64,000 nt of DNA, from assembly GCA_029856145.1 (NCBI GenBank), contig JAHQWK010000026.1, positions 27,628-91,627 of the forward strand. Reading direction: 5' to 3'. The translations under genes were made by a program, and so were the position numbers. Positions within the stretch are counted from its first letter, which is position 1. Every line of letters begins with the position of its first letter. Below, one piece after another: positions 1,786 to 49,291 of the stretch. This DNA is from Promethearchaeia archaeon (GTDB lineage: Archaea > Asgardarchaeota > Lokiarchaeia > Sigyniarchaeales > SOKP01). The notes under the pieces were generated by a model. The model saw only the letters and a list, made by a program, of their open reading frames with translations. It made no database searches and was not told the origin of the DNA.

Positions 1786-3006
1786 TTATTGATATCTTTT
1801 AAGAATCTCATTCAAATCTTCATTAGATAATACTATTTCATTAAAAATTTTAATTAATATTTTTATAATTTCTCTAGGATTGCCTTTAGAACGGTTATAA
1901 ATATATTTTAGTACTATTTCGTTAAGTGGATAATAAGAATCTGAAAAATCCCTGAAATAATCAAAATAGTTAATATTTCCGAAAAAAAATTCTAAATTTT
2001 TCTTATAAAATGTAGAAAGGTCCTTTTCTATAAAGTTCGATAAAATAATAGGTTCCTTCAATACATTTAAGAGATGGCTATTTTTATCTTCAAATTTATC
2101 TTTAATTTCCTTATAATAATCAACTGATTTCAGAGTAATAATTATTCTTAGACCTTTAATTTTATTTAAATTAAGAATTTTGTCTAATAATTTCTCCGCT
2201 GTATGCTTTTCTGGCGATTCTCTGCTCCCATAAAGCCAGCTTCGATCAAAAACTTCTTCTTTTTCTTCTCCTATAGATATAGGTTTCATCATAGAAATAA
2301 TTTTTTCGAAATCATCGATAAATAATACACTATTTACTATTGAATTTTCAACTAATACTTTCAGCATTGTATAGGAGTGATTCCTTCCCCTTAAGTCATG
2401 ATTTAAATTTAGTCTTGAAAGTTCTCTTATATCTATAACTTCTCCTAAAAACCATCTCTCAGCTTCTATTTTTTTATATGGATCAAGTTGATGAGCTGTT
2501 AATGCATTTATTATATCCATTATTGCTGTTTTATGCTCAAAGTTTGGTGCCCAACTATCAAAAGCAACCTTTCTCACCTTCTCGATATCAGCTAAATGAA
2601 AAAAACCATACTTTCGCTCTAAAGCACCCCATTTATTACATAATCTTCTCGCAATATTCCTTAAAACTTCAATACCCATACTTTCAATAAACTCTGAGTA
2701 TGTATAATAATAAAACTTCTTAATAACATTCTCTAATGAAACATAGATGATATTATAGTAATATAATTCATGTTTTAAGGCCCAAAATAAATGTGTTTTC
2801 CCATTACCTACACCTCCTATTATAGGTAGAATAAAATTTTCATCTTTTTCAATTACATCAATAATAGAATATAAGAAGTCTTGCCTTGATTGAACTAATC
2901 CAATATCCTCTTCAATTTCTCCTGTAGACACAAATTTTTTAAAGGGAGAACCTGTGAATTTTAAGAGATTAAGCAGTTTTTGTTGTTTATTTTCAAAAAG
3001 GAGCAT
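1786..3006 (-). CDS. P-loop/AAA+ ATPase
   Basis: Walker A GGVGNGKT, Walker B VLFIDDFE, C-terminal GNPREII sensor-2-like motif. Confidence 0.8.
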   Translation of the reverse strand: MLLFENKQQKLLNLLKFTGSPFKKFVSTGEIEEDIGLVQSRQDFLYSIIDVIEKDENFILPIIGGVGNGKTHLFWALKHELYYYNIIYVSLENVIKKFYYYTYSEFIESMGIEVLRNIARRLCNKWGALERKYGFFHLADIEKVRKVAFDSWAPNFEHKTAIMDIINALTAHQLDPYKKIEAERWFLGEVIDIRELSRLNLNHDLRGRNHSYTMLKVLVENSIVNSVLFIDDFEKIISMMKPISIGEEKEEVFDRSWLYGSRESPEKHTAEKLLDKILNLNKIKGLRIIITLKSVDYYKEIKDKFEDKNSHLLNVLKEPIILSNFIEKDLSTFYKKNLEFFFGNINYFDYFRDFSDSYYPLNEIVLKYIYNRSKGNPREIIKILIKIFNEIVLSNEDLNEILKRYQ

Positions 3007-3023
3007 TTTTAAATCGGTTTACT

Positions 3024-3647
3024 TTAAGATTTTAATTCTTCAATTCCTAAAATTATAATATATTCAACTACTTTATCATCCACGTTGATAATTGATTCGT
3101 AACTTATATTAAGTTCGTCATTTTTATCTCTTCCAACAATCAAGCAATCGTAAAAAACTGGATCACCATTATCATCAATAACTACTCTATCAGCAATAAT
3201 AATACCATTCCGGATCATTGAAATAGGATTTTTTAGTATCTCACCTTTAAAAAAATCTAAATGATTAAGTCTAAATTTGGGATCGTCTAAAAGTAAGCCT
3301 GCTGTGTGAAGTAAATTAATAGTAAAAGGGAAATCGTTCGAAAATTGACCTTGATCATATTGTTCCATAGTATTTTCGGGTATTAAAATAGAATATTCCA
3401 AAGGGATCTCATTTAAATTCCATTTAAAATTCATACTTCTTGAAAATGGGTTAATATTTTTTTCGACTTTTTCGAACCCTACAAGTAAGCCTTCAGATAT
3501 ACTGATTCCTTCTAATTCTGATACAATGATGTTATCAGAAAAGATTATTTTATCTTGCCATTTTGATATAATTGAACCCGTAAATTTTCCATTGGTTTGT
3601 ATCCCTTTAAAAGAATCATATAAGATAAAATTGGGTGAATTTGTCAT
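3024..3647 (-). CDS. Hypothetical protein
   Basis: 207-aa ORF co-oriented with, and 18 bp from, the ATPase. Confidence 0.6.
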   Translation of the reverse strand: MTNSPNFILYDSFKGIQTNGKFTGSIISKWQDKIIFSDNIIVSELEGISISEGLLVGFEKVEKNINPFSRSMNFKWNLNEIPLEYSILIPENTMEQYDQGQFSNDFPFTINLLHTAGLLLDDPKFRLNHLDFFKGEILKNPISMIRNGIIIADRVVIDDNGDPVFYDCLIVGRDKNDELNISYESIINVDDKVVEYIIILGIEELKS

Positions 3648-48774: not shown

Positions 48775-48996
48775 ATGAGAAAAGATATTAAGAAATTACT
48801 AATTATTATTTTCAGTATAATCGGCTTAGCGGCAATAATTACTGTTGTTACTTTAGTTTTTATCAATGCTGGAACTAATGGTGGTGGAGGATGAGGTTGT
48901 GTGATAATTAACTTTCAAATATTCGATTCTACGATAAATCGTTTAATAAATCCTATTTTCGAGCAATTACAGAATTTTGCAATATTTTCAATATAA
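48775..48996 (+). CDS. Single-TM micro-protein: 39 aa to the TGA at 48892, or 73 aa if that TGA is selenocysteine
   Basis: MRKDIKKLLIIIFSIIGLAAIITVVTLVFINAGTNGGGG-TGA-GCVIINFQIFDSTINRLINPIFEQLQNFAIFSI-TAA. Confidence 0.5.
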
Positions 48997-48999
48997 TAA

Positions 49000-49066
49000 T
49001 CCGAATGAAATGATTCTTGTTAATAAATGTGAGTAGCAAGTTGATCCGTCTAGCAAAGGCTTCGGA
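49000..49066 (+). promoter_or_regulatory. SECIS-like / K-turn RNA element
   Basis: ATGAT(49010)...TGAT(49042) core, CTTGTTA/TAGCAAG helix, AAA at 49025, closing TCCGAA/TTCGGA. Confidence 0.45.
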
Positions 49067-49138
49067 AAAAAGAACAAAAATGAGTTATTATAAAAGATAA
49101 TATAAAATTTTATTATTTAGATTAATTTAGGGGTACTT

Positions 49139-49291
49139 ATGCTTAAAGCAATATTATCAGTAAATGAGAAAAAGATTCCATTGAAAGATTTTATGCAAGA
49201 GATGCTAACGAACATTATCTTAGGTTATATAAAATCAACAAAAGGGACTCCTGAACATATAGAAAAGATTACAATTGAAATTAATTTATAA
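49139..49291 (+). CDS. Small protein resembling the archaeal MobB C-terminal domain (50 aa)
   Basis: MLKAILSVNEKKIPLKDFMQEMLTNIILGYIKSTKGTPEHIEKITIEINL*; AGGGG SD-like. Confidence 0.55.
   Translation: MLKAILSVNEKKIPLKDFMQEMLTNIILGYIKSTKGTPEHIEKITIEINL

Follow-up and report, generated by a model that had tools for sequence, protein, structure and literature searches.

A putative small bitopic membrane selenoprotein encoded by a lokiSECIS-bearing minigene of Lokiarchaeia

Layout of the locus

The window, which is the whole stretch of 64,000 nucleotides of Promethearchaeia DNA that was analyzed, contains a short open reading frame followed closely by an RNA hairpin (Table 1). With the standard code the frame encodes 39 amino acids and ends at a TGA (48892-94) placed after the motif NGGGG. 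Past this codon it continues through Gly-Cys and 31 further codons up to a TAA (48994-96), and reading the TGA as selenocysteine (Sec) would give a product of 73 residues with Sec as U40. These elements had been outlined in a first-pass annotation from the ATG at 48775 to the TAA, including the basic N-terminus and the single transmembrane (TM) helix, and all its coordinates held on re-verification. Four Lys or Arg residues precede the helix, whose mean Kyte-Doolittle value over 21 residues equals the family median. Across the family the linker has a median of 10 residues (range 5-28) and is net negative in 60/77 members, only 11/77 having a Lys or Arg in it. In the typical member Sec is followed by x-Cys and by a tail of 13-33 residues.

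Table 1. Predicted elements of the minigene and of its 3' region, numbered as in the window
Feature	Position	Strand	Basis
Selenoprotein ORF	48775..48996	+	73 aa with TGA as Sec; 39 aa with TGA as stop; homologues
Basic N-terminus, residues 1-7	48775..48795	+	Predicted cytoplasmic (positive-inside rule); net positive in 74/77 members
Single TM helix or signal anchor, about residues 8-30	48796..48864	+	KD21 = 3.0; family median 3.0
Polar Gly-rich linker, residues 31-39	48865..48891	+	Acidic or neutral across the family
In-frame TGA, predicted Sec40	48892..48894	+	TGA in 24/24 syntenic loci (neighbour-selected) and 8/8 SECIS-DNA-selected loci
Cys42, U-x-C partner	48898..48900	+	Cys at +2 in 53/91 loci; in 27 more it lies elsewhere within 4 residues
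Amphipathic tail, also UGA-to-SECIS spacer	48901..48993	+	Variable in sequence and length
Type I lokiSECIS	49000..49066	+	Consensus in PMC4989117
lokiSECIS outer stem	49000-05/49061-66	+	Fold and relatives
lokiSECIS 2-bp stem	49007-08/49045-46	+	Fold and relatives
lokiSECIS AUGA	49010-13	+	Fold and relatives
lokiSECIS upper stem	49014-22/49034-42	+	Fold and relatives
lokiSECIS loop	49023-33	+	Fold and relatives
lokiSECIS GA	49043-44	+	Fold and relatives
lokiSECIS side hairpin	49048-60	+	Fold and relatives

The neighbours of the minigene in the window encode an MFS transporter, an ARMT1-like phosphatase and an Mrp/NUBPL ATPase. The flanks are lineage-specific: in the genus of the window they comprise a membrane protein gene and one of 50 aa, and in another genus two genes that by eye resemble those of a sugar kinase and of a TrmB regulator. 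The downstream genes vary between genera both in kind and in orientation (the 50-aa gene, a TrmB-like gene, genes on the opposite strand). No neighbour is common to the whole family; therefore, the minigene and its SECIS form a self-contained unit. The analysis revealed no partner or substrate and no functional neighbour that is conserved. Up to two genes away in either direction there is no conserved modifying enzyme or exporter, and no conserved feoB adjoins. The 50-aa ORF of the window (49139-49291) is itself conserved, often just 3' of the minigene within the genus, and has no Pfam match. One RNA contig of 175 nt in one metatranscriptome spans 49033-49207, the selenoprotein ORF itself lying outside it.

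The 3' element and the Sec machinery of the host

The hairpin behind the frame had been likened in the first-pass annotation to a eukaryotic SECIS. The published lokiSECIS consists of AUGA, a 9-bp stem, an 11-nt A-rich loop with G as last base, and then GA or AA (PMC4989117). The window element agrees with type I in its AUGA/GA core, in the dimensions of stem and loop and in being close to where a coding sequence with UGA ends. Seven of the nine positions of its upper stem are paired, the two beside the core being U-U (seven to nine pairs in relatives), the A-rich loop of 11 nt ends in AG, and AUGA lies 16 nt past the first base of the stop TAA and 118 nt past the UGA. A strict lokiSECIS pattern was scanned over both strands of the 3.55 Mb genome, with five order-3 Markov genomes as control, and gave 7 matches versus 0-2 (mean 0.6) in the simulated genomes, which together with the dimensions upholds the earlier description. 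The matches correspond to VhuD-type genes on contigs C2, C30 and C25 (the third), to a Prx-like gene, to the window gene, to a tandem-UGA gene and to one likely chance match; four of the seven stand behind known selenoproteins. The fold energy of the window hairpin alone is unremarkable (z -1.49), no Rfam model, SECIS included, matches it, and a loose SECIS pattern was set aside as uninformative, having 506 matches.

The lower part of the element had been considered a weak helix I. It is not simply weak: a 2-bp stem closes the kink-turn and is joined by an outer stem of 6 bp and by a side hairpin, relatives show compensatory changes, and the three parts are also found in the VhuD SECIS of the same genome. 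In an alignment of 20 relatives 89.5% of the cells pair and two-sided changes occur at 12 of 21 pairs; covariation is 0.36, compared with 0.19 after shuffling and no more than 0.13 after sliding, although these values, like the p-values, are overstated because kin are not independent. The 91 family loci have a loop of 11 nt in 85 cases, G as its last base in 89 and GA in the core in 90, traits that are partly imposed by the filter. A model built from the SECIS of this family alone recovers the elements of the three VhuD genes and of the Prx-like gene in the same genome.

Two further loci of the genome were observed in the course of these searches. A gene of 158 aa (L125:1032-1508; G000:C9:170437-170913, + strand) contains two in-frame TGAs side by side, reading HAD-U-U-AD here and C-U-U in its paralogues, and has a lokiSECIS of its own. 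It has matches in 69/81 genomes of the class, nearly all with at least two TGAs, and none in Pfam. A SECIS-like element (L124, G000:C22:125125-125206, + strand; E 1.6e-7 with the family model) stands behind a 64-aa hydrophobic ORF that has no TGA; there is no obvious Sec gene upstream, and the element is possibly an orphan remaining after Sec loss.

The genome has the components required for Sec insertion, whose absence had been named beforehand as grounds for rejecting the proposal. The tRNA-Sec (C8:12915-13007) and SecS (C8:11546) are located on the same contig beside an EFSec-like factor (C8:17129) that scores just under the SelB cut-off, and a PSTK-like kinase, also under its cut-off, is found at C4:30233. 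Two tandem SelD genes (L023 and L024; G000:C9:622849-624880) each have Sec at an in-frame TGA and a SECIS-like 3' element. SecS is present in 152/161 genomes of the class. A likeness between G-G-U-G-C and the SelD loop was dropped, the SelDs of this genome reading HGUSCK and FGUNCK, and a motif scan of the genome for known selenoproteins was noisy.

Conservation of the UGA and of the frame beyond it

The first homology search gave 21 homologues of the same genus with an in-frame TGA (E 0.01 or better), of which 20 are true members. With profiles, further members came to light throughout family f1 and in three genomes of family f6, which belongs to another order; in two large genera of Lokiarchaeia 47/53 and 39/42 genomes have a match, which in a few cases is weak and TM-only. 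Outside the class only weak TM-type matches were obtained, and members were found neither in the other Asgard classes searched nor, with the queries used, in three closed genomes of family f2 (4.3-6.0 Mb). Relatives within the class provide 91 distinct TM-UGA-SECIS loci, a count for which a SECIS was required and in which a few short-distance cases are possibly false.

A sample without query bias was obtained by choosing 29 loci only by the upstream neighbour, a gene of 337 aa. The minigene is present in 24 of them, always with both TGA and SECIS, and the remaining five lack both. The own stop of that neighbour varies (TAA/TAG/TGA 20/2/2), and TGA accounts for 14% of stops in the window genome. 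In one genome (G031) minigene and SECIS are both cleanly absent between the usual neighbours. The two co-occur, are lost together and shift jointly between differing neighbourhoods. Starting from the other end, the exact SECIS DNA pattern has 8 matches over 185,579 genomes, all behind a TM-TGA minigene.

No clean orthologue with Cys for Sec, by which a selenoprotein is usually confirmed, was found in 400 genomes of the phylum or among 1.84 billion proteins. Database homologues of full length that have Trp in place of Sec were discarded, as they would be code-4 gene calls and not real substitutions. A degenerate paralogue (L118:~2980-3500), which has a short local duplication, reads G-C-N-C (Cys-x-Cys) with no TGA and retains a SECIS overlapping its end; it is a possible Sec-to-Cys change or a pseudogene. 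Two poly-Gly TM ORFs (L069, L074) that have neither UGA nor SECIS were not accepted as orthologues, since an intact member is present elsewhere in their genomes. Small TM proteins with Cys-x-x-Ser/Cys repeats from family f18 of another Asgard class (L129, L130) were also rejected, their likeness to the family being limited to the TM. Several genomes of the genus have second copies (L131-L135, L137-L140, L085), paralogous minigenes with a TM, a long acidic linker and C-x-U or C-x-x-U, most of them with a SECIS. In family f4 a TM minigene is followed by U-G-G-U-C (L198, G045:C1:3353687-3353824); it has no SECIS by the filter used and is a possible divergent member.

The stretch past the UGA is open in 50/74 members, versus a mean of 18 and a maximum of 27 in shuffles. 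Over 21 close pairs the head has a dN/dS of 0.37 and the tail one of 0.66 (p 0.006), and tail amphipathicity exceeds that of shuffles in 33/38. Therefore, the tail would be translated but loosely constrained; the coding signal beyond the UGA is significant and weak, and the tail is poorly conserved, only one to three residues remaining in 7/91 loci. Homologues thus keep the TGA, with a SECIS 3' of it and a frame that is mostly open, and not the Gly codon or different stop that would have argued against the initial proposal. A Cys is found within four residues of Sec in 80/91 loci (+2 in 53, -2 in 11, elsewhere in 16) and is lacking there in 11, so that the partner changes side from some members to others. 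The U-x-C motif first noticed in the window is consequently the majority form and not a universal one, since C-x-U, U-x-x-x-C and Cys-less forms exist. One member reading U-P-C-U (L044) may have a second Sec.

Later TGAs behave differently from the conserved one. While the latter lies 37-125 nt upstream of the SECIS AUGA, 14 of 17 later TGAs are within 18 nt of it or overlap it, and presumably act as terminators. This arrangement is the one expected from the minimal-distance model of PMC4989117.

A proposed mechanism, its rivals and known relatives

Taken from the sequence, the window very probably contains a real gene of 73 residues whose apparent stop is read as Sec. We have high confidence that the UGA is selected together with the 3'-UTR lokiSECIS, the simplest reading being recoding to Sec by tRNA-Sec and EFSec. 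That the locus is a stand-alone minigene of Lokiarchaeia (Promethearchaeia) for a small bitopic membrane selenoprotein is likely. In the proposed mechanism the basic N-terminus would stay inside and the helix would serve as an uncleaved anchor. The net positive N-terminus and the net negative linker, by the positive-inside rule, place Sec outward at about 10 residues from the membrane, a topology predicted from charge bias only, and the flexible Gly or acidic linker would hold the selenol just outside the membrane. Sec would cycle with the nearby Cys as a selenenylsulfide; in members lacking Cys, the role of the latter could fall to a partner protein or to another copy. A Cys that may stand on either side of Sec would be in line with a Se-S ring that forms reversibly or with a metal site of two ligands. 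The tail may be an optional amphipathic anchor and would at the same time keep the UGA at a distance from the SECIS that allows recoding. As there is no enzyme fold, the protein is probably an accessory subunit or a scavenger, and with neither fold nor operon partner its most likely role would be that of a redox or soft-metal accessory. We lean slightly towards a redox or soft-metal ligand or accessory for other envelope proteins, with cycling between Sec and Cys or a partner.

The TGA could instead be the true stop of a 39-aa membrane peptide, with the hairpin as an unrelated K-turn/L7Ae site or an element of another gene. Selection that is stronger on head than on tail, truncated forms in databases and a tail nearly absent in some members would agree with it. 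However, the site is never TAA or TAG in the neighbour-chosen loci, the frame beyond it is kept open, and the hairpin has lokiSECIS dimensions, resembles the VhuD SECIS and is lost and moved along with the minigene, while the upstream 337-aa gene that it might serve has no in-frame TGA; a true stop is hence very improbable. Recoding might also take place for the sake of regulation, as a selenium sensor whose read-through acts on the fate of the mRNA or on a gene further downstream, or as a sink tuning the supply of Sec-tRNA. A minimal protein with a dispensable tail and no enzyme fold would suffice for it, but the downstream genes differ by genus and orientation, and the conserved TM helix, the charge bias and the mobile Cys partner imply a function at the protein level, which leaves regulation unlikely.

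The order basic-hydrophobic-polar is also that of a signal peptide, and small SGUG selenopeptides (selenobacteriocin) are listed for bacteria. Cleavage would release a secreted Gly-Sec-x-Cys peptide acting as metal scavenger or RiPP-like product. However, about 23 hydrophobic residues in a row are many for a signal that is cleaved, the alignments show neither a conserved cleavage motif nor a lipobox, the nearby genes provide no conserved modifying enzyme or exporter, and members ending as U-G-stop would release only about 10 residues, so that we regard secretion as rather unlikely. The gene might also be a true homologue of SELENOK/SELENOS that persists in archaea as a relic of their ancestral family, which would be in keeping with the Asgard host, with the single TM, the lack of a fold and the Gly-flanked Sec, and with 7 loci that end within three residues past Sec (e.g. 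PPPNGGG-U-G-stop). Against it stand a charge bias implying N-in/C-out versus a type III protein with cytosolic C-terminus, a short and non-basic linker, the lack of a Pfam match and the restriction to one class, with absence from the other Asgard classes searched; such homology is quite improbable. That an Asgard fold-less single-pass Gly-Gly-Sec protein was the ancestor or a direct relative of SELENOK/SELENOS, its outward topology being later rearranged at the ER, is likewise improbable.

SELENOK/SELENOS proteins are defined by an N-terminal TM, a region rich in Gly, Pro and positive charges, Sec second or third from the C-terminus, and a cytosolic C-terminus of type III (PMC10650576). The minigene product resembles them in being small, with one N-terminal TM helix, a Gly-rich unstructured stretch and Sec after Gly-Gly, and a minority of members has the near-terminal Sec as well, the likeness being striking in those that end in PPPNGGG-U-G-stop. 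In contrast, its linker is acidic or neutral, its predicted orientation is the opposite and there is no detectable sequence similarity; among the defining traits the window gene has the single N-terminal TM, but neither the Gly/Pro/basic region nor, with U40 of 73, the near-terminal Sec, and its charge bias predicts the opposite of a cytosolic C-terminus. Hence, from the comparison made in the first-pass annotation the resemblance in layout stands and membership in the family does not, and the likeness is probably convergent. Small bacterial Cys/Sec peptides (PF12669; selenobacteriocin TIGR04081; KCU-star NF033934) are likewise short, with a Gly-flanked Cys or Sec. PF12669, the FeoB-associated Cys-rich membrane protein, also has a TM helix, and it is touched by only one member of the family (E 0.11).

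Relatives in recoding mechanism are the lokiSECIS genes of Lokiarchaeia (VhuD/HdrA, VhuU, PrxL, SelD; Mariotti 2016, PMC4989117; PMC11227280), with which the minigene shares the recoding signal right after the stop, the host machinery and, for the VhuD SECIS of its own genome, the flanking stems. It differs from them in having no enzyme fold, in its membrane anchor and in that no Cys homologue was found. Seven selenoprotein families, none of them eukaryote-specific, have been reported in Asgard archaea (Huang 2024, PMC11227280); in Pfam and NCBIfam the minigene matches none of these (SelD, FrhA/VhuU, HdrA, FrhD/VhuD, Prx-like, AhpF-N or DsbA-like domain). Neither database has a fitting family, only weak TM-type matches, with no NCBIfam selenoprotein model among the matches listed, and none of the 119 families in a 2026 inventory of prokaryotic selenoproteins (PMC13188914) fits. 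One relative is annotated at NCBI as a truncated hypothetical protein of 48 aa (MFX1570865.1). The family is apparently absent from published Asgard selenoprotein lists in the open-access literature.

The initial suggestion of a possible new Asgard selenoprotein is therefore supported, in the form of what appears to be a real family operating on a known recoding system, for which we infer the function. The seven published families all came from homology to known ones, and the minigenes would escape such searches because they are tiny, truncated by gene callers and without a Cys homologue. They would represent a candidate fold-less membrane selenoprotein in archaea, with a layout otherwise familiar from eukaryotes, and the origin of SELENOK/SELENOS-type proteins, by descent or convergence, becomes testable. 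The natural distances between recoded UGA and SECIS and those of the terminal UGAs bracket the minimal recoding distance of the lokiSECIS. Moreover, the whole cassette takes less than 300 nt and could be a handy reporter of how an archaeon lacking SBP2 reads a eukaryote-like SECIS.
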